Shown one piece after another: positions 379 through 10,878 of a DNA stretch of 10,878 nt. The DNA is from a virus (Duplodnaviria; Heunggongvirae; Uroviricota; Caudoviricetes): IMG/VR virus record IMGVR_UViG_2908567220_000005; one strand, 5' to 3'. The stretch's first letter is position 1, and every line of letters begins with the position of its first letter. The notes under the pieces are model-generated. The model had not been told where the DNA came from, ran no database searches, and saw nothing but the letters and a program-made list of their open reading frames with translations. The position numbers and the translations under genes were made by a program.

Positions 379-776
379 TTAACGGCTCACTGTGCGCATT
401 TTTGTGCGCAAAAACCTTAACAAACCCTAACAATACCTTAATAAAACTGTATATCTAACTTCCGCCATCTACTGCGAACGGATAGCGCCCAAGCCAGCAA
501 TAACAGGCATCTCCGCTATTTTTCGAATGAGCAATTCGCGCTTAGAAATTACTGCGAATTCGCAATTTCTGTACGCAATACCACCGTTAGCATTCGTCAG
601 GTAGTACGCACGTTGAATGCGCAGTTTTGCTGCGCACCTGACTGCGTACCAGTGGAACGAACCAGATATTTAGGACGTCCTGAATCAGGATTTGGCTTCC
701 AGCCCGCTACTGGCGCGGCTAGGGTTTTAAATCCGTACTAAACAGTACTAAATTTTCCGCCGTTTGGGTGCGAACG
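379..776. promoter_or_regulatory. Large non-coding region dense in TGCG-core palindromes and repeats; probable promoter/operator hub
   Basis: Direct repeat TGTGCGCA at 391..398 and 404..411. Perfect 12-bp palindrome TGCGAATTCGCA at 554..565. Inverted repeat TGCGCAG-N5-CTGCGCA at 618..636. Three copies of ACTGCG(A/T)A at 471..478, 551..558 and 641..648, with a fourth at 779..786 just inside the neighbouring ORF's 3' end. Direct repeat GTACTAAA x2 at about 734..751. No ORF of 60 aa or more on the minus strand. Confidence 0.4.
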
Positions 777-1088
777 TTACTGCGAACCATCGCCCCCGCT
801 GGTGGTCTGCCGTTGCCTCTTGCCGCCATTTAACCGGAAGGCGTTACCGTTCGGTTGCGCTATCCCCATGCGGTGTTGCGTTTCGGTGACAGCTTTATGC
901 AGGTCGCCAAAGTCCTCAACCTTCACGGGCGGGCGCTTCACGTTCTCCAGACACGTTTCACGGCGGCGCTTTATCCATTCCCGATCATCGTCCTCGGTGC
1001 ATAACAGCATGACTTCCATCCATCGCGCTGCGGCGCGTCGGTACAGCCCTTTTGCTTCTAGATCCTCGGCTTTACTGTCGTTTACCAT
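777..1088 (-). CDS. PerC-family-like transcriptional regulator (103 aa)
   Basis: ATG at 1086..1088 preceded by a strong SD (GGGGGAGATAAAC then ATG on the minus strand); TAA stop at 777..779. N-terminal motif AEDLEAKGLYRRAAARWMEVM matches my recollection of the PerC-family signature; not verified by search. Confidence 0.55.
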   Translation of the reverse strand: MVNDSKAEDLEAKGLYRRAAARWMEVMLLCTEDDDREWIKRRRETCLENVKRPPVKVEDFGDLHKAVTETQHRMGIAQPNGNAFRLNGGKRQRQTTSGGDGSQ

Positions 1089-1301: not shown

Positions 1302-1973
1302 TTATTCCACCAGCAAAAATGGCGTTGCCCGGTCTATGACGTTGATGCCAATTAACGAGCCAACATTTCGACCATTCACAATGCTATCCCGTTCAAGCAA
1401 ATGCGCTATTTTTTCTACTTCATACCAGTATTGAGCCATGAGGGCTTTGGTCTTTTCAACGAGTTTAGAAAGCATTAACTCCCTGTTAATTCGCTTATCT
1501 GTAGCGCAGATTAAATCGAGCATGTCATTTACGTTAGCCATGTCATAGCGATGAGGTAGCGAATACTTTTTGTTGAAAATATCGTTGTTTTCGTAAAGGG
1601 CTTCGCTTACTGGTCCGGCGAGGGATACAAAAGCGGCCTTTTTTGCATCGCGCTTTATACCATCCGCATAGTAACGTATGAAAGGGATAACTTTACCATT
1701 CTGCCCAACTACACCAGATTTACTATCCCGCAAACGCCCGAGATCGTGGCTGTGAATTATGCTGTGTTTAACAACGCCCAAACACTTGGCCTCATGTACA
1801 TGTTCGCCAGCAACGTAACCGTATTCATCCATAACGGCGATAACCTGTATATCTAAGCGAATAAGCCATGCAGCTACTGCATGTCCCGCTTCGTGGAATG
1901 CTACACATCGTTTACCATCACCTATCCAGTTATAGAACATTTCATGCTCATATATCTGGTGAATGGCGCCCAT
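1302..1973 (-). CDS. Stand-alone FtsH-like (peptidase M41-type) zinc metalloprotease domain protein, 223 aa, no AAA+ ATPase module
   Basis: ATG at 1971..1973 overlaps the upstream gene's TAA stop (TAATG coupling). Intact HEXXH motif in VAFHEAGHAVAAW, as in FtsH (HEAGHA). Downstream segments (FVSLAGPVSEALYENND and the helical C-terminus ANVNDMLDLICATDKRINRELMLSKLVEKTKALMAQYWYEVEKIAHLL) parallel the FtsH protease domain. The ORF is too short to hold an ATPase domain, and no Walker A is present. Confidence 0.7.
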   Translation of the reverse strand: MGAIHQIYEHEMFYNWIGDGKRCVAFHEAGHAVAAWLIRLDIQVIAVMDEYGYVAGEHVHEAKCLGVVKHSIIHSHDLGRLRDSKSGVVGQNGKVIPFIRYYADGIKRDAKKAAFVSLAGPVSEALYENNDIFNKKYSLPHRYDMANVNDMLDLICATDKRINRELMLSKLVEKTKALMAQYWYEVEKIAHLLERDSIVNGRNVGSLIGINVIDRATPFLLVE

Positions 1974-2313: not shown

Positions 2314-2343
2314 CACCCCCCCCATAGAATCTTTTTGGGGGTG
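2314..2343. other. G/C-stem hairpin (CACCCCC-N16-GGGGGTG) within the putative origin region
   Basis: Perfect 7-bp inverted repeat 2314..2320 / 2337..2343. Not followed by a U-run on either strand, so it is not a canonical intrinsic terminator. Confidence 0.3.
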
Positions 2344-2349
2344 TAATAT

Positions 2350-2591
2350 CCCTACCAATCCCTACTAACTGGCTCATGCCACGAATGGCAAGGCTTTCAG
2401 ACTGGTAGGCATTCAATTTTGTTGCCCTACATAACCCTACTTATCCCTACTAAATCACTTCAACGGCATTTTACTGCCTGTTTTATTTGGTAGGGATATG
2501 TAGGGATAAGTAGGGATAAAAATATATATCCCTACCTAGTTTAAAGCCTTGCTACGTCTGGCCTCGTTTCGTTTTTAGTAGGGCAGTAGGG
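2350..2591. repeat. Iteron array (CCCTAC / GTAGGG core, about 11 copies), putative replication origin (ori/crr-like) for the adjacent primase-helicase
   Basis: CCCTAC at 2350..2355 and 2360..2365. Three copies in 10-bp phase at 2425..2430, 2435..2440 and 2445..2450. Three inverted copies GTAGGGATA in 10-bp phase at 2490..2498, 2500..2508 and 2510..2518. CCCTAC at 2530..2535. GTAGGG at 2578..2583 and 2586..2591. The array sits immediately 3' of the primase stop (2613..2615). Confidence 0.6.
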
Positions 2592-2612
2592 ATAAGTGCC
2601 GCCGTAAAAGTT

Positions 2613-5054
2613 TCAATCATCACTCTGCCCGCTCTCCACACCGTAAGCGCGTGGCATGAACTCCTCAGCCTTCTCGTTATAGCCAACGTTGGTTTGCGCT
2701 CTGCCGTTAATGCTTCTCGTCAGGTAGCTGGCTCGGTACTCTTTTGCTGCTGATTTTATGGCGCGTGAAAACTTATTGACGGAAAGCGGTTTACCCAAAC
2801 CGTGATACTCCATAAACGCCAGATAAAGATGATAAAGATACGTCCTCGGCTCTGGCTGGCCTGCCCATGTACCTCCGCCCATCATCATGCCTTTGGGTTC
2901 GTTCATGAAAAAAAGCGTCGCACACATATCGACAACCGGATCCGTGCCGCGTTTAACCTCTAGCGCCTCCTGCGAATCGCGCTGCTCTAGTAATAGTGCC
3001 TTTGCTTTGTTCTGGTCGGCAAAGGTGGTTAGCAGGTGGCGGATAATCACCGGGATTTCTCGCCTGATTTTTGCGGTTAAATCCGGGTCTTTGTCTGCGT
3101 CTGATACCGGGTTATTAAACGGGAATATCACGCGGCGGCGGGCAATGCCCCCGTTTCGCTCCGTGAATGTCATCGGCTCGTTATTGGTTGCCATAACAAC
3201 GGCATTTATCACGGTTGTGAACTGCTTTTCATATTTCCCATCAATCTCTACCGGATCGCCGCCCGTAATGGCTTTAATCCCCGCACCCTCTCCAACATAG
3301 CGGGTCTGGTCAGGCATAATAATCAGGCTTTTTCCTACGAACTGCGCCCGTCCCCGTGCGGTGTCCAGCGTCATCATGCTACCGCTGGCGGTGTTGTGTT
3401 CACCTGCCAGCGTGGTTGCTATGCTGCTGAATACGGATTTCCCACTGCCGCCCTCGCCAGTTATCTCAATGAATAGCTGCCAGTCGTGACGCTTCGCCAG
3501 CACCATAAACAAGGCTGCTTTGATACGCTCGGCCTTATGATGGTCGCCAGCCGTTGCATGATTCAGCCAACGGGTAAAATTGGGGGCGCTGGTGGTAATA
3601 TTTTCCCCCGGCGCTGGCGGGGTGTAGGTGATCCCATTGTGGTTCATCAGCCAGTTACCCGGCGAATGGGCGGAAAACGTCTGCGTAGCGAGGTCATAAA
3701 CGCCGTTATCAAAACCAATCAGATCCCCGCTCCGCTCACCAATTACCGGTATTTGCAGCTTCATGGTTGCGACAACCGATTTAATCCCCTTTTCGGTGTA
3801 GTGGGCTTCGTGCTCGTCGAAAATTGCCACCATAACCCTTTCTAATTCGCTGCCTGGTAGCTTCACCCATACGCCAGATTCGTAGCAGTAAACAGTGCCA
3901 CTATCAGGGTTAACCGCCAACATATCCCATCGAGATGAAAGCAACCGCGCTTTCTGGCTGGCTGCCATTTGTGCAATATCTCCGACATCGGCTTTACGGC
4001 GGGATTTACCGCCGTCAATGGCTTGCAATCGCGGTTTCACGGCTTCCCCTTGAATCTGGTACATCGAATCGTTAAACGCAGCCGTAGCGACTTCCAGCCC
4101 GTTTTGCTGGCGGTAGTCGTCCCAGTCGGCTTTGTAGTCTGTCGGCGGCAGCGCCACCCAGCCAGCCACGGATAAGGCGGCTTTCTCTGCGGCATCTTTG
4201 CCCGTGTTCGCCTGTTCGTCCTGCTGGTGGTCGTTATCTGCGGCAATGATAATCTGCACGGCTGGATATATCCGGCGCATCACTTCGGCAACGGGTAGCA
4301 GGTTGCCCGCGTCAATTGCTGCCACTGCCAGCGCGTCCGGGCGCATCAGGTGAACTGAAAGGGCCGTCGCCAGCCCCTCGGCAATTAAAACGCTCTGCGG
4401 CGATTCTGGCGCGTTTACGGCGTGATATGCCCCGCGCTTTGCTGAACCTGTCAGGAGTCGTTTATCTCCCTGCGGCGTGATGGTCTGCGCCGCCACTACT
4501 GCGCCGGATTCATCCACCAGCGGCAGGAGTAGCGAACCATCAGACATAACCGGGTAATTAAACCCGGTCAGCCCTTTTGATTGCAGGTAATCAGATTCGC
4601 CCTGTGTGACACTCTGGCGCATTCCGGCATACAGACGGGCAAACGTAGCCCTTCGCTGCTCTGCGTCCTCTGCTGCCTGTTTCTGGCGCTCCTGCTCACG
4701 CTGCTGGCGGTCAGCTTCCAGTTGCTCTCTTCTATGGCTCGCTGCCACCGGGTCGGTTTGCGCTGCCCGGTAATCAATACCCAGCACGTCAGCGGCAAGC
4801 TGTGCCGCCTCCGTAGTGTCGCAGTTGTTAACCCGCTTGATTAAATCCAGCCCGTCACCAGCGCCACACTGGTTGCAGATAAAGCTACCGCGCCCGTTGT
4901 CGTCGAATCTGAAACGGTCTTTTCCACCACATGCAGGGCATGGAGAATGGCGGCGCGATGAATCAGGAACGTCGATAGACAGGCCAGCCAGCACATAAGG
5001 CCATTTACCAGCGGCGGCGGTGGTCACTTCGCGGATAAGGTCGATATTACGCAT
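2613..5054 (-). CDS. P4 alpha-type bifunctional DNA primase / helicase (813 aa)
   Basis: ATG at 5052..5054 with SD GAGGGAG; TGA stop at 2613..2615. N-terminal Cys4 zinc-finger (CPACGGKDRFRFDDNGRGSFICNQCG), a central Toprim-like acidic region (VLIAEGLATA ... IIIAADNDH), and a C-terminal P-loop NTPase with Walker A (EITGEGGSGKSV). Size and layout match P4 alpha-like primases, followed by iterons. Confidence 0.9.
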   Translation of the reverse strand: MRNIDLIREVTTAAAGKWPYVLAGLSIDVPDSSRRHSPCPACGGKDRFRFDDNGRGSFICNQCGAGDGLDLIKRVNNCDTTEAAQLAADVLGIDYRAAQTDPVAASHRREQLEADRQQREQERQKQAAEDAEQRRATFARLYAGMRQSVTQGESDYLQSKGLTGFNYPVMSDGSLLLPLVDESGAVVAAQTITPQGDKRLLTGSAKRGAYHAVNAPESPQSVLIAEGLATALSVHLMRPDALAVAAIDAGNLLPVAEVMRRIYPAVQIIIAADNDHQQDEQANTGKDAAEKAALSVAGWVALPPTDYKADWDDYRQQNGLEVATAAFNDSMYQIQGEAVKPRLQAIDGGKSRRKADVGDIAQMAASQKARLLSSRWDMLAVNPDSGTVYCYESGVWVKLPGSELERVMVAIFDEHEAHYTEKGIKSVVATMKLQIPVIGERSGDLIGFDNGVYDLATQTFSAHSPGNWLMNHNGITYTPPAPGENITTSAPNFTRWLNHATAGDHHKAERIKAALFMVLAKRHDWQLFIEITGEGGSGKSVFSSIATTLAGEHNTASGSMMTLDTARGRAQFVGKSLIIMPDQTRYVGEGAGIKAITGGDPVEIDGKYEKQFTTVINAVVMATNNEPMTFTERNGGIARRRVIFPFNNPVSDADKDPDLTAKIRREIPVIIRHLLTTFADQNKAKALLLEQRDSQEALEVKRGTDPVVDMCATLFFMNEPKGMMMGGGTWAGQPEPRTYLYHLYLAFMEYHGLGKPLSVNKFSRAIKSAAKEYRASYLTRSINGRAQTNVGYNEKAEEFMPRAYGVESGQSDD

Positions 5055-6319: not shown

Positions 6320-6525
6320 AGCCTCTATACAGTGAATTTTGAATTCACCACCAAGAGACGCCAATCTCAGACTGGTGGTGAGCTGAACAAGGTTGGCGTA
6401 ACCGGCCTGTATAGACACCGGCCTTCCTTTCGGAAGCCTCATCCAGCCCACCATAATTTGGGTGCGCAGGAATTTTGCCGACAAAAAAACACGCTTAGTG
6501 CGTGTCGGCACTATACAGGTTATCG
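6320..6525 (-). ncRNA. Structured leader / candidate antisense immunity RNA (phage P4 CI-like or P1 C4-like)
   Basis: Plus-strand CTATACAG at 6325..6332 and 6511..6518, with its reverse complement CTGTATAG at 6407..6414. On the minus-strand transcript the order is CUGUAUAG ... CUAUACAG ... CUGUAUAG. The middle copy sits in the loop of a CCGG-stem hairpin (6401..6423). The last copy abuts the SD of the Icd-like gene. Other hairpins: GTGAATT-N3-AATTCAC at 6332..6348, CACCACCA-N19-TGGTGGTG at 6346..6380, CTTCC-TTTC-GGAAG near 6424..6437. Boundaries and strand are inferred. Confidence 0.4.
6481..6505 (-). terminator. Candidate intrinsic terminator inside the leader (6-bp stem, 5-nt loop, U7 tract on the minus strand)
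   Basis: Plus-strand ACACGC (6489..6494) / GCGTGT (6500..6505) inverted repeat preceded by A7 (6482..6488). On the minus strand this reads hairpin then UUUUUUU. It lies between the first and second 8-mer elements. Confidence 0.4.
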
Positions 6526-6833
6526 GGACGCCAATCCCGGCACCTGATTTTGCAGGTGCGCTATAACCATAAACCGGGTTGGCGATAGTCGGCAAGCCCT
6601 TTTTTATGGACTCGCAAAACTCACCTTCGCGCGTGCGCGTACTGGTCGCAAAACTCGAAAAAAACTTAGGATTTATTAGGATTCGCAGCCCAATTCTCAG
6701 CCCAGAAAACGCCTCTAAAATGTCGTCATTTGTCGCAACGGCGCGGCGATGAATGTCAGGTTTTGACAGGTTGTAAGGGTTAACATTTGTTAACAGGCTA
6801 GCCAGATTAAAGGCTTCTTTCTGGGCGGCAGGT

Positions 6834-7854: not shown

Positions 7855-8286
7855 TTAGGCGGCGGTGAGATTGTCCGGGTATAGATTGAGAATGTCGGCA
7901 ATTTCAGGCTGAGAAAGTCCCTGATAGCCGCCAGCGTCGGCGTTATGGTTCACAAGCCGAATAACTTTTAGAACGTCACCGCGCCCGGTAAAGCGATAGC
8001 GTAAATGTGACCCTATCCCGTCGGGGTTCTTTTCGTCTATACGCTCAAGCTGAATATCAAGCCTGCGCTCTAACTCGCTGGCGTAGTTCCTTCCAGACGA
8101 AAGGCGGCAATAACGCAGAATATCGTTTTCTGTCCATCCCTCTATACCAGTACGCAGCATATAGACGCGGGCGCGGTGTTTCTTTGGGGTACGCTTAGGT
8201 ACTTGTACAGGGCTGGTGGGCGGGGTAATATCAGTACCGCGAATATCTGAATTAGCCGCCTGTAATGGGCGGTTTTTCTTTTCCAT
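7855..8286 (-). CDS. Hypothetical protein (143 aa), translationally coupled to alpA
   Basis: ATG at 8284..8286 overlaps the alpA stop (TAATG). Pro/Thr-rich basic N-terminus followed by a predicted helical domain. No confident family assignment. Confidence 0.55.
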   Translation of the reverse strand: MEKKNRPLQAANSDIRGTDITPPTSPVQVPKRTPKKHRARVYMLRTGIEGWTENDILRYCRLSSGRNYASELERRLDIQLERIDEKNPDGIGSHLRYRFTGRGDVLKVIRLVNHNADAGGYQGLSQPEIADILNLYPDNLTAA

Positions 8287-8489
8287 TACGCCACCTTTCC
8301 CCGGCGCTCCGCCAGCCAGTTGTGAATATCAGCCGCATCAAACGCAGTTATTTTTTCTCCCAGCTTTACCGGACGTGGTAGTGAACCGTTTCTTACTTTA
8401 CGGTCGATGGTGGATACACTAACGCCCAGCAATTCAGCCAGGCGAAAGCGTCTGATATAGCCTTTTGTAGGGATAGTGTCGATGTTCAT
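8286..8489 (-). CDS. alpA: AlpA/Vis-family phage transcriptional regulator / excisionase-like HTH protein (67 aa)
   Basis: ATG at 8487..8489. Sequence RFRLAELLGVSVSTIDRKVRNGSLPRPVKLGEKITAFDAADIHNWL is the AlpA-type HTH signature. Its position downstream of a P4-type integrase matches the int-alpA arrangement of CP4-57/P4-like elements. Confidence 0.8.
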   Translation of the reverse strand: MNIDTIPTKGYIRRFRLAELLGVSVSTIDRKVRNGSLPRPVKLGEKITAFDAADIHNWLAERRGKVA

Positions 8490-9564: not shown

Positions 9565-10818
9565 TCATGCTCTGATTGGCGTTACGTTGTAGTCTTTTCC
9601 GCTTTCCAGTGCCACCAGCAAATCACACCACTGCGCCAGCGCCGCTTTACGCTCATCAAAATACTGGTGACGGTTATAGATACCCTCCACACCTTTAATT
9701 TTGTGATTAAGGCATCTTTCTGCGACTACCGGATCAACGCCCAGCGCTGCTAAATGAGTACGTGCGGTGCGTCGGAAGTCGTGAATCGTGAAATTAGGCA
9801 CATCCGGCATTTCGGCGCGAACCTTAGCCAGTGCTACGGGCAGGGTGCTTTCCTGAATATGGGGGATCATGCGGTTTTGCATCTTTCTGGCTGGCAGTAC
9901 CCATGCGCTGTTGCATGAGAACGTTTTAAGCTCTCTCAGCCATTCGACGGCTGGCGGTGCTAATGGGATGTCTATAGCGTCGCCGTTTTTGCTGCGTTCC
10001 TCTGGCAAGCGCCATACGGCTTTATCAAAATCGAACTCCTCCCAGCGGGCGGCGCATAACTCCATTTTGCGGACGCATAACGCTAACAGTAATTTGAACG
10101 TGATTTCGTTCTGGCGACTGAATCCCTTAGCCGTGCGCATGGCTTTGAATAGCTGGATTAACTCATCGCGGGTTAACCAGCGGTCACGGGCAACTTCTTT
10201 CCCTCCGGCGTCTGCCACCTCAAAGGCTGAACAGGGGTTAATCTCTAGCGCGTGCCGTTTGATTCCGTAGTCGAATATGCGGCGCGTCCATCTCAGCACG
10301 TCCGTTGCTATGGTCGGCGCTCCACGGTCAACAATACCTTTCAGCATGTCATCGATATGGCGCGGTTTCACGTCCTCTACCTTCATGCTGCCAATGCAGG
10401 GGTTTATATCTTTGTCGATACGGCGGCGGAGTATATCGGGGTGCTTCCAGCGCGGGAGGATCTGACGCTCAAAGTATTCAGCGGCAAGCTCTGAAACGCG
10501 CATAGCGTTCTTCTCTGCTTCCATCTTCGCTAGTGCTTCGGTTTTGCGCTTCTGCTTCTCTCCTGCAACGTCATAGCCCAGCGCAACGCGAGCCGATAGC
10601 TCTTTGGCTGTCTCTCTGGCCTTTGATAGTGATAGCTCGCTATACGAACCAATTAGCATGGCGCGGGACTTCCCTGCGAGTTTATAGCGGAATCTCCATG
10701 TGGGGGTTTTGTCGGCTTCACGGTAACGTAGGTATAAACCGTTACCGTCTGCCCGCCCCTCGAATCGCTCTCCGCTCTTAATCCATGCGCGGATCTGCAT
10801 GTCTGTTAGTTTTGGCAT
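9565..10818 (-). CDS. int: P4-family tyrosine integrase (site-specific recombinase)
   Basis: Preferred start is the ATG at 10816..10818 (MPKLTDMQIRAW...), giving the typical P4-type N-terminal arm-binding region (GNGLYLRYR ... WRFRYK). The track ORF extends in frame to an ATG at the window edge (10876..10878). C-terminal catalytic domain has HDFRRT (HxxR) and a conserved Tyr near the C-terminus (GIYNRHQY). TGA stop at 9565..9567. Confidence 0.9.
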   Translation of the reverse strand: MPKLTDMQIRAWIKSGERFEGRADGNGLYLRYREADKTPTWRFRYKLAGKSRAMLIGSYSELSLSKARETAKELSARVALGYDVAGEKQKRKTEALAKMEAEKNAMRVSELAAEYFERQILPRWKHPDILRRRIDKDINPCIGSMKVEDVKPRHIDDMLKGIVDRGAPTIATDVLRWTRRIFDYGIKRHALEINPCSAFEVADAGGKEVARDRWLTRDELIQLFKAMRTAKGFSRQNEITFKLLLALCVRKMELCAARWEEFDFDKAVWRLPEERSKNGDAIDIPLAPPAVEWLRELKTFSCNSAWVLPARKMQNRMIPHIQESTLPVALAKVRAEMPDVPNFTIHDFRRTARTHLAALGVDPVVAERCLNHKIKGVEGIYNRHQYFDERKAALAQWCDLLVALESGKDYNVTPIRA

Positions 10819-10848
10819 TTTGCGAATATCCAAACTTTGAATAGGGGG

Positions 10849-10872
10849 TGTACCCAAAGCAATGTACCCAAA
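10849..10872. repeat. Direct 10-bp repeat TGTACCCAAA x2 upstream of the integrase start; candidate arm-type or regulatory sites
   Basis: TGTACCCAAA at 10849..10858 and 10863..10872, separated by 4 bp, in the integrase 5' region at the window edge. Confidence 0.25.
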
Positions 10873-10878
10873 CCTCAT

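Follow-up and report, generated by a model that had tools for sequence, protein, structure and literature searches.

A TGCG hexamer array beside a truncated small-terminase homologue as a candidate pac-like packaging signal in an enterobacterial phage satellite

Packaging-site capture by phage satellites

Capturing a packaging site is how satellites make a phage their vehicle, and satellites that copy the packaging site of a helper or encode proteins related to the small terminase subunit (TerS) are already known, including SaPIbov5, EcCICFT073 with its protein Rpp, and PLE. Phage headful-packaging signals (pac sites) can lie within terS or at its beginning, as in P22 gene 3, P1 pacA, and SPP1 pacL/pacR. 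The P1 pac site is made up of hexamers in pacA, repeated to either side of the region that is cleaved. In P22, the pac site is part of the terS reading frame (PMC11260489). The locus described here is a non-coding gap at positions 379-776 of a 10,878-nt stretch of viral DNA (the window; IMG/VR virus record IMGVR_UViG_2908567220_000005, Caudoviricetes), located between a PerC-family gene and the gene for a 125-residue protein, p125. The window is a Gram-negative island of the phage-inducible chromosomal island (PICI) type with P4-like replication and immunity parts. The gap carries an array of TGCG(A/C/T)A hexamers that is read here, with moderate confidence, as the pac-like packaging signal of the island, an expanded non-coding mimic of an array found in phage terS genes. 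In being a signal at the start of a terS-like gene it would resemble the pac sites of P22, P1, and SPP1, yet the island array is non-coding, larger, of mixed hexamer subtypes and different sequence, and upstream of a terS remnant that lacks a DNA-binding domain.

Among satellites, a close parallel is PLE (phage-inducible chromosomal island-like element) of Vibrio cholerae, which mimics the pac site of its helper (Boyd and Seed 2024, bioRxiv 10.1101/2024.04.22.590561). Both systems would pair a satellite copy of helper pac with satellite proteins acting on the terminase, but PLE uses a single 14-bp sequence of a lytic phage together with Gpi, GpsA, and GpsB, whereas the present element, an enterobacterial PICI/P4-like island, has a 400-bp multi-site array beside a truncated TerS homologue. 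The present island is of the same kind as the EcCICFT073-type PICIs (Fillol-Salom et al. 2018, 2019), which have int, alpA, pri-rep, ori, and in some cases PerC, and which combine a cis packaging site, or two in some islands, with a small TerS-related protein that redirects helper packaging. That protein, Rpp, retains a winged-helix domain like that of TerS, and at cos it combines with lambda TerS into a hybrid DNA-binding domain; p125, in contrast, has no DNA-binding domain and no similarity to Rpp and belongs to a different TerS family, and no cosN was found in the gap.

Staphylococcus aureus pathogenicity islands (SaPIs) either encode their own TerS or copy the packaging site of the helper (PMC6092414). 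Compared with SaPI TerS-SP and the cos mimicry of SaPIbov5, the difference is that the SaPI protein is a complete TerS with its own DNA-binding domain, while p125 is truncated and its cis site matches a helper-type array; relatives of the present island additionally encode a complete DUF2280 protein, which occupies the TerS position in phages. The literature searched contained no description of the array, of its counterpart in phage terS, or of a TerS without a helix-turn-helix (HTH) domain.

A hexamer array between the PerC gene and p125

All genes of the window lie on the minus strand, so that the gap is downstream of the PerC gene and directly upstream of p125 (coordinates in Table 1). An earlier note, made from the sequence alone, had described 379-790 as an unusually long non-coding region packed with TGCG-core palindromes and repeats between a PerC-like gene and a gene for a small basic protein. 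The first of these is a PerC-family gene and the second is p125. Each repeat feature listed in the note was found at its stated place, from the 12-bp palindrome and the 7-bp inverted repeat to the two TGTGCGCA copies in tandem and all four copies of ACTGCG(A/T)A. The packing is also real: counted on either strand, 12 TGCGNA hexamers occur in 379-790 against 1.3 ± 1.1 expected, 0 of 5000 first-order Markov simulations reach 12, and no other 412-bp stretch anywhere in the window is enriched. By their fifth base the hexamers comprise five A-type (TGCGAA), four C-type (TGCGCA), three T-type (TGCGTA), and no G-type sites, and six of the 11 successive intervals between them measure 12-13 bp. ACTGCGWA occurs five times in the 10.9-kb window, four of them in the region, where 0.74 would be expected (five or more in 0 of 200 shuffles). 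Two parts of the description needed amendment. The region is non-coding for 379-776 but not for 779-786, where the last ACTGCGAA falls at the end of the PerC reading frame, whose stop codon is at 777-779, and the gap is indeed long, but the gap at 2174-2612, which holds the replication origin, is long as well. The P2/P4 Ogr/Delta dyad TGT-N12-ACA, reported missing, does not occur in 379-790; the whole window has two, at 874 and 3970.

Read on the gene-sense strand, the tandem at 391-410 is TGCGCAC-N5-TGCGCAC and ends 12 nt before the p125 ATG; it is possibly an operator, or else a site for TerS that overlaps the ribosome-binding region of p125. The p125 promoter must likewise lie in the proximal part of the gap, unless p125 is co-transcribed with PerC, and the gap presumably includes the p125 5' untranslated region. 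No consensus sigma-70 promoter emerged from a promoter and terminator scan, which returned one weak terminator-like site on the + strand. GC content falls to 34% across 351-450, and the AT-rich stretch at 411-460 is possibly a bend or a host-factor site; two overlapping one-mismatch IHF-like matches lie at 428-443, not above chance across the window. The RNA fold z-score of the region, -3.6, is expected from the palindromes, and Rfam searches of the whole window and, at a permissive threshold, of 300-900 found no match in the gap. Searches for DNA similarity between the gap and GenBank phages gave no meaningful match, and the same was true of the 20-mer CCAGTAGCGGGCTGGAAGCC (698-717) against IMG/VR.

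The same repeats inside phage terS genes

Five GenBank phages were found through HTH similarity at the protein level, not through repeats, and in all five a repeat array directly follows the HTH-coding segment of terS. The array of Klebsiella phage RothC consists of two TGCGAATTCGCA palindromes 33 bp apart (TGCGAATTCGCA-N21-TGCGAATTCGCA) plus TGCGAA, and 7 of the 10 hexamers in 3.1 kb of RothC lie within 107 bp. The arrays of ST16-OXA48phi5.1 and vB_EcoS-611R4 have six and four copies of TGCGCA, respectively, that of Pasteurella phage Pmp11 has nine copies of TGCGAA, and that of the Shiga toxin (Stx) phage P13374 has four copies of GATCATGAAAT. When IMG/VR was scanned for pairs of TGCGAATTCGCA palindromes separated by 10-30 bp, 102 contigs were found, of which 97 have the dyad pair in or next to a RothC-like terS at about codons 48-63; in four others, all satellites, it stands 120-190 bp upstream of p125, and one contig fits neither description. 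In satellites the two dyads are 31-32 bp apart, compared with 33 bp in the terS genes of phages.

As p125 aligns with TerS residues 107-215 (see below), the order of array, GNxNAxKHG motif, and helices is the same as within phage terS. To judge from this order, the island unit of array followed by p125 is colinear with a phage terS that has lost its HTH and whose array is no longer coding. Phage terS genes have 4-10 hexamers compared with 12 in the gap, where all frames are closed. The large terminase (TerL) of RothC is of the Terminase_6N type, the family of T4-type large terminases. TerL proteins of this type are taken here to go with headful packaging.

Within the P13374 terS (L035 1620-1690), each of the four GATCATGAAAT repeats, at the same terS position, has a GATC Dam site. 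These repeats are reminiscent of the P1 pac site with its Dam-regulated TGATCA/G hexamers.

Correspondence between an HTH residue and hexamer type

A total of 91 distinct TerS HTH sequences immediately upstream of arrays was collected (viral loci L037-L375). Where the helix has Lys ('..AKRYIK'), the array is of TGCGAA (4-9 copies) with almost no TGCGCA in 44 of 44 sequences; where it has Arg ('..ARR(Y/H)IK'), the array is of TGCGCA (4-10 copies) without TGCGAA in 43 of 44. Residue and hexamer thus match in 87 of 88 distinct HTH sequences, including Lys/Arg pairs that differ by just two or three residues across the first 43 and distant Pasteurellaceae-like sequences. The rule also fits four GenBank phages with these helices and a terS remnant in a Serratia relative (L017), which has AKRHIK and then only A-type sites. 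Together with the position of the array in terS, which is shared by the P22 pac site (PMC11260489), and its non-coding retention in satellites, this residue-base correspondence points to TerS reading the hexamers at the DNA level. The hexamers look like TerS recognition sites, and the pattern suggests a one-residue code in this TerS family, in which A at hexamer position 5 would be recognized by Lys and C by Arg.

p125 as a small-terminase homologue without an HTH

Profile comparisons indicate that p125 is a truncated TerS homologue whose N-terminal HTH has been lost. When the p125-family profile was aligned with phage TerS-family profiles (hhalign), p125 22-119 matched TerS 107-215 at 94.8% probability (E 4.9e-8), and the aligned TerS segment spans the GNxNAxKHG motif and the helices that follow; the absence of the HTH is read from this coverage. 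Against a single TerS sequence the p125-family profile gave 85% probability, and phrog_1889, a terminase-small-subunit family, matched p125 weakly (E 0.0047). p125 begins just before GNxNAxKHG, with the central motif and C-terminal helices of phrog_370 and phrog_51 but without their HTH (MAKPDWxxLQ...G.NY.TA.RYIK). No HTH remnant was detectable by tblastn or blastn in any frame of the gap.

The AlphaFold model of p125 has helices at 50-71 and 77-123 and no winged helix; its N-terminus is modelled with low confidence and is unstructured, though highly conserved. Foldseek searches with the model were uninformative because the fold is merely a helical hairpin. Pfam and PDB sequence searches with p125 gave nothing useful, with no PDB sequence match to RppC, and tblastn against phages gave only non-significant matches to Streptococcus TerS. 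The 108 homologues of p125 found across Enterobacterales are all unannotated.

Serratia relatives have arrays beside remnants of terS. In L017, an intact small open reading frame (ORF) with the HTH, upstream of a similar hexamer cluster, reads MARQDWGALQKQFLAEHAKTGISPEDWCKAQGIKYSTAKRHIK, and this peptide matches the TerS N-terminus of phages in no fewer than 253 GenBank records, among them phages of Klebsiella, E. coli, and Pasteurella as well as Stx-converting ones; in L005/P0108 the remnant reads 'TKPxRGLRTT'.

Conservation in related islands

Comparison of motifs across homologous elements, which the earlier note had proposed as a check, showed the array to be conserved in satellites of several genera, with the gap recognizable in those of E. 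coli, Atlantibacter, Shimwellia, Klebsiella, and Dickeya. The array is kept beside p125 homologues of 70-78% amino acid identity (Klebsiella, Dickeya, and other Enterobacteriaceae). The gap is not decaying, since its nucleotide identity equals or exceeds that of the adjacent gene: in L023 the proximal 222 bp are 99% identical to the window compared with 78% for the p125 gene, and in L026 they are 83% identical compared with 72.5%. Its best-kept elements are the TGCGAATTCGCA palindrome, the second dyad, the GTTAAGG direct repeat, and the proximal TGCGCAC-N5-TGCGCAC tandem. The palindrome is retained in seven of eight aligned satellite regions, Dickeya included, and deleted in L014. The second dyad, degenerate in the window, is a perfect TGCGAATTCGCA in Klebsiella and Dickeya and reads TTGCGAATTCGCAA in L026, L024, and L029. 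The proximal tandem is kept in all eight aligned relatives, with the variant TGCGCATTTGCGTAC in Dickeya, while the GTTAAGGTTTGTTAAGG element of the AT-rich stretch is conserved in the aligned satellites and the ACTGCGAA at 471-478 is kept in L002, L004, L014, L023, and L026. In L004, a change on both sides preserves the symmetry of the 54-bp palindrome (TACGCGG / CTGCGTA). The mix of A-, C-, and T-type hexamers without G-type recurs in all nine related satellite regions examined.

The PerC gene adjoins the region in many relatives, and the array is retained with a different upstream gene in L023, L024, and L029. The gap travels with p125 and not with primase type: in islands whose primase is 98.6% identical, positions 1-793 of the window are wholly absent, and L003, an island without p125, has no hexamer cluster. 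Among the closest E. coli relatives, a 1219-bp indel (L001 11725-12943; L003 about 8000), bounded by the short G/C-rich microhomologies CCCCCTCCC / CGCCCCCGC, takes out exactly the gap, p125, and about 426 bp beyond, and because of it the C-terminus of PerC differs (103 aa compared with 93 aa).

A second TGCG hexamer array lies downstream of p125 in two relatives (L001 11801-12101 and L002 11651-11951), just beyond position 1 and so outside the window. The 78-bp segment at 641-718 is repeated beside it at 86% identity, about 150 bp past the p125 stop codon. This second array sits where relatives in Klebsiella and other genera have a DUF2280 gene. That gene (PF10045) follows p125 in many relatives (L023 6436-6909, L026 6439-6849), and in two phage loci (L030, L031) it is found immediately upstream of, and overlapping, the large-terminase gene, which is the TerS position; PHROGs lists the DUF2280-type family as of unknown function. 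In phages of the DUF2280 type the terminase genes have no hexamer array nearby, so the array does not go with the DUF2280 protein.

In Pectobacterium and Brenneria (L008-L013, L015, L018-L020, L022), p125 homologues come directly after apparent RelE/ParE-type toxin-antitoxin genes with no long upstream gap, and L013 has two tandem p125-like segments.

Proposed packaging route

Pac sites are located in or next to the small-terminase gene, and the gap abuts the TerS homologue p125. If the gap is a packaging signal, the induced island would replicate from its origin at about 2340-2600, and the HTH domains of a helper TerS oligomer would bind the hexamers, with A-type sites (TGCGAA, including the TGCGAATTCGCA dyad) suiting a TerS with Lys in the '..AKRYIK' helix and C-type sites (TGCGCA) one with Arg. 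The bound TerS would then recruit TerL of the phage to island DNA, where packaging would start, and the island would probably be loaded into the heads of phages with hexamer-bearing terS. p125 probably interacts with the helper terminase, to judge from homology and from the analogy with Rpp and the PLE proteins, and may join or compete with helper TerS or TerL so that packaging is biased toward the island. With both A-type and C-type sites present, the array could serve helpers of either specificity. The full combination is put forward tentatively, and with clearly less confidence than the packaging role itself: the mixed TGCGAA/TGCGCA/TGCGTA array as a multi-specificity "master key" signal for helpers of differing TerS specificity, p125 co-assembling with helper TerS or TerL to divert the motor, and the Lys-A/Arg-C code.

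Several observations weigh against a packaging role. The whole module of gap and p125 is missing in many related islands, so it is not essential to the island family, and the p125 homologues of Pectobacterium and Brenneria mostly have no array nearby. Beyond the hexamers, no alignment of the gap to any phage terS gene was detected; as only motifs link the two, "mimics" is a safer term than "was copied from". Three of the 12 hexamers are unexplained, since no phage TerS paired with TGCGTA arrays was found among the 120 contigs listed. RothC-like prophages do not co-occur significantly with the island in 5426 E. coli genomes (two shared compared with 0.41 expected). Most loci behind the covariation were found through the array pattern itself, and linkage could contribute to it because the Lys/Arg codon lies less than 100 bp from the array. 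In the phages, the hexamers could merely encode a flexible linker of Lys, Ala, Asn, and Gln.

Alternative explanations

The earlier note had offered both operators for one or more regulators, with control of late or helper-responsive genes, and a packaging or recombination site. Packaging is the best fit of these, and the operator idea found no direct support. A promoter/operator region, in which the TGCG dyads and tandems are bound by a helper-responsive regulator of p125 (and of DUF2280 in relatives) such as PerC, AlpA, p125 itself, or a host factor, is considered rather unlikely. It would account for the position directly upstream of p125, for the conservation in all relatives of the tandem that ends just before the start codon, for a dyad symmetry typical of dimeric regulators, and for the PerC gene found next to the region so often, and the lack of a consensus sigma-70 promoter would suit an activator-dependent one. 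It does not account for the same hexamers and dyad pair inside the coding sequence of phage terS genes, which have no PerC neighbour, nor for the arrays that persist beside a gene other than PerC. Hexamer type, moreover, covaries with the phage TerS helix and with no regulator of the satellite, the window lacks a second hexamer cluster near alpA, int, or another promoter region, and 12 sites over 400 bp are many for a single operator. The gap could also be a decaying leftover of the 5' part of a captured terS with no present function. The truncation of p125, the frameshifted terS fragments beside similar arrays in Serratia relatives, and the degenerate second dyad of the window agree with such decay, which is nevertheless improbable given that conservation of the gap matches or exceeds that of its neighbour, that the hexamers outnumber those of phage terS and were kept with every frame closed, that all nine related regions share the same mix of types, and that relatives have duplicated the array downstream of p125.

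A cos site of the lambda/EcCICFT073 kind, with cosN and island-specific cosB repeats read by an Rpp-like protein, is if anything slightly less probable than decay. E. coli PICIs of this type have cos sites with private cosB, some of them two (PMC6739421, PMC6092414), two arrays flank p125 in relatives, and the arrangement of repeated sites ahead of a TerS-like gene is similar to that of cosB and Nu1. Against this, the gap has no lambda cosN-like 12-mer (GGGCGGCGACCT type) at up to two mismatches, with a window-wide count at the level of chance, and it resembles no phage DNA in GenBank or IMG/VR; p125 matches no Rpp structure in the PDB and has no winged-helix domain, and the motif-sharing phages have TerL of the Terminase_6N type. 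The least probable explanation is a replication origin or a crr-like cis replication region whose iterons the P4-type primase would bind. Short repeated motifs and an AT-rich stretch, both present in the gap, would suit it, and in P4 a second set of iterons (crr) is located downstream of the primase gene. The region is, however, entirely lacking in relatives with nearly the same primase and goes with p125 instead. An origin at 379-790 was rejected, as a PICI-type origin with a different iteron (ATCCCTAC) is located at 2340-2600.

Significance

For Gram-negative PICI and P4-like islands, the lambda-type cos/Rpp route is so far the only one understood in detail. If the packaging-signal reading is true, a second route would be added, in which a pac-type signal is paired with a truncated small terminase. 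The array would then also indicate the pac signal of a TerS family with members in temperate phages of Klebsiella and E. coli and in relatives of Stx phages, and the residue-to-base rule would allow the pac specificity of such phages to be predicted from their sequences. This bears on the prediction of which islands, many of them with defence and virulence cargo, are mobilized by which phages, and on the design of transducing particles with chosen packaging specificity.

Gene content and features of the island

The window has the layout of Gram-negative PICIs, with int at one end, an AlpA-type regulator, pri-rep with an iteron origin, co-oriented genes, and no capsid or tail genes, as no window ORF matched a structural gene family. 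It shares an alpha-type primase-helicase and a CI/C4-type immunity RNA with P4 but has no psu, delta, or sid among its ORFs or in annotated relatives. Each of the Rfam matches at 6371-6572 (minus strand), to C4, isrK, and c4-a1b1, exceeds its own gathering score. A P4-type CI immunity RNA is thus present although the island has no psu, delta, or sid genes. The replication origin lies directly downstream of the primase gene, inside the 2174-2612 gap, and its position and layout match those described for PICI origins (PMC6092414). A few small genes lie between the primase and PerC-family genes. Related islands in E. coli are inserted beside tRNA-Thr or in the yicC/dinD interval, the latter in L002.

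Table 1. Coordinates of genes, repeats, and other features of the 10,878-nt window.
Feature	Position	Strand	Description
p125 gene, 125 aa	1-378	-	N-terminal GAPxGNTNAVKHG motif conserved; C-terminal helical hairpin
Intergenic gap, PerC gene / p125	379-776	-	No ORF of at least 40 aa on gene-sense strand
Tandem TGTGCGCA-N4-TGTGCGCA	391-398 and 403-410	.	Two C-type hexamers 12 bp apart
AT-rich stretch	411-460	.	Three 10-11-bp phased repeats, AAAACCTTAACAAA type; GTTAAGG repeats on sense strand
ACTGCGAA copies	471, 551, 779
Isolated ACTGCGAA	471-478	+	A-type hexamer at 473-478
Second dyad, degenerate	522-533	.	TTCGAATGAGCA on + strand; 31 bp from first dyad
Perfect 12-bp palindrome TGCGAATTCGCA	553-564	.	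Two back-to-back A-type hexamers
Imperfect 54-bp palindrome	596-649	.	Four hexamers, 12-13-bp spacing: TACGCA 605, TGCGCA 618, TGCGCA 631, TGCGTA 643
7-bp inverted repeat TGCGCAG-N5-CTGCGCA	618-636	.	Centre of 54-bp palindrome
ACTGCGTA copy	641
78-bp segment ACTGCGTACCAGTGG...CCAGCCCGCTACTGGCGCGG	641-718	.
Nested perfect palindromes AGGACGTCCT, TCCTGAATCAGGA	672-681, 678-690	.	Distal gap; unrelated to hexamers
Direct repeat GTACTAAA, two copies	735-752	.	10-bp spacing; distal gap; unrelated to hexamers
Two A-type hexamers (TGCGAA at 769, 781)	769-786	+	12 bp apart; straddle PerC stop codon; second within PerC frame
PerC-family gene, 103 aa	777-1088	-	Pfam PF06069, E 2e-29; upstream neighbour of gap
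223-aa protein	1302-1973	-	HEAGH zinc-metalloprotease-like motif; weak Peptidase_M41 and M50B matches below Pfam cut-offs
Replication origin	2340-2600	.	At least 10 ATCCCTAC/GTAGGGAT iterons, 10-bp spacing, inverted blocks around AT-rich core
P4-family primase-helicase (alpha-type, pri-rep)	2613-5054	-	Primase domains
C4/isrK immunity RNA, P4-type CI system	6371-6572	-	Rfam C4 72 bits, isrK 76 bits, c4-a1b1 48 bits
AlpA-type regulator	8286-8489	-
AntA, DUF4222, Ash-family genes	past AlpA, reading right to left	-
Tyrosine integrase (int)	9565-10878	-	One end of island

With regard to the 223-aa protein, one relative has the annotation "peptidase M41 family protein".

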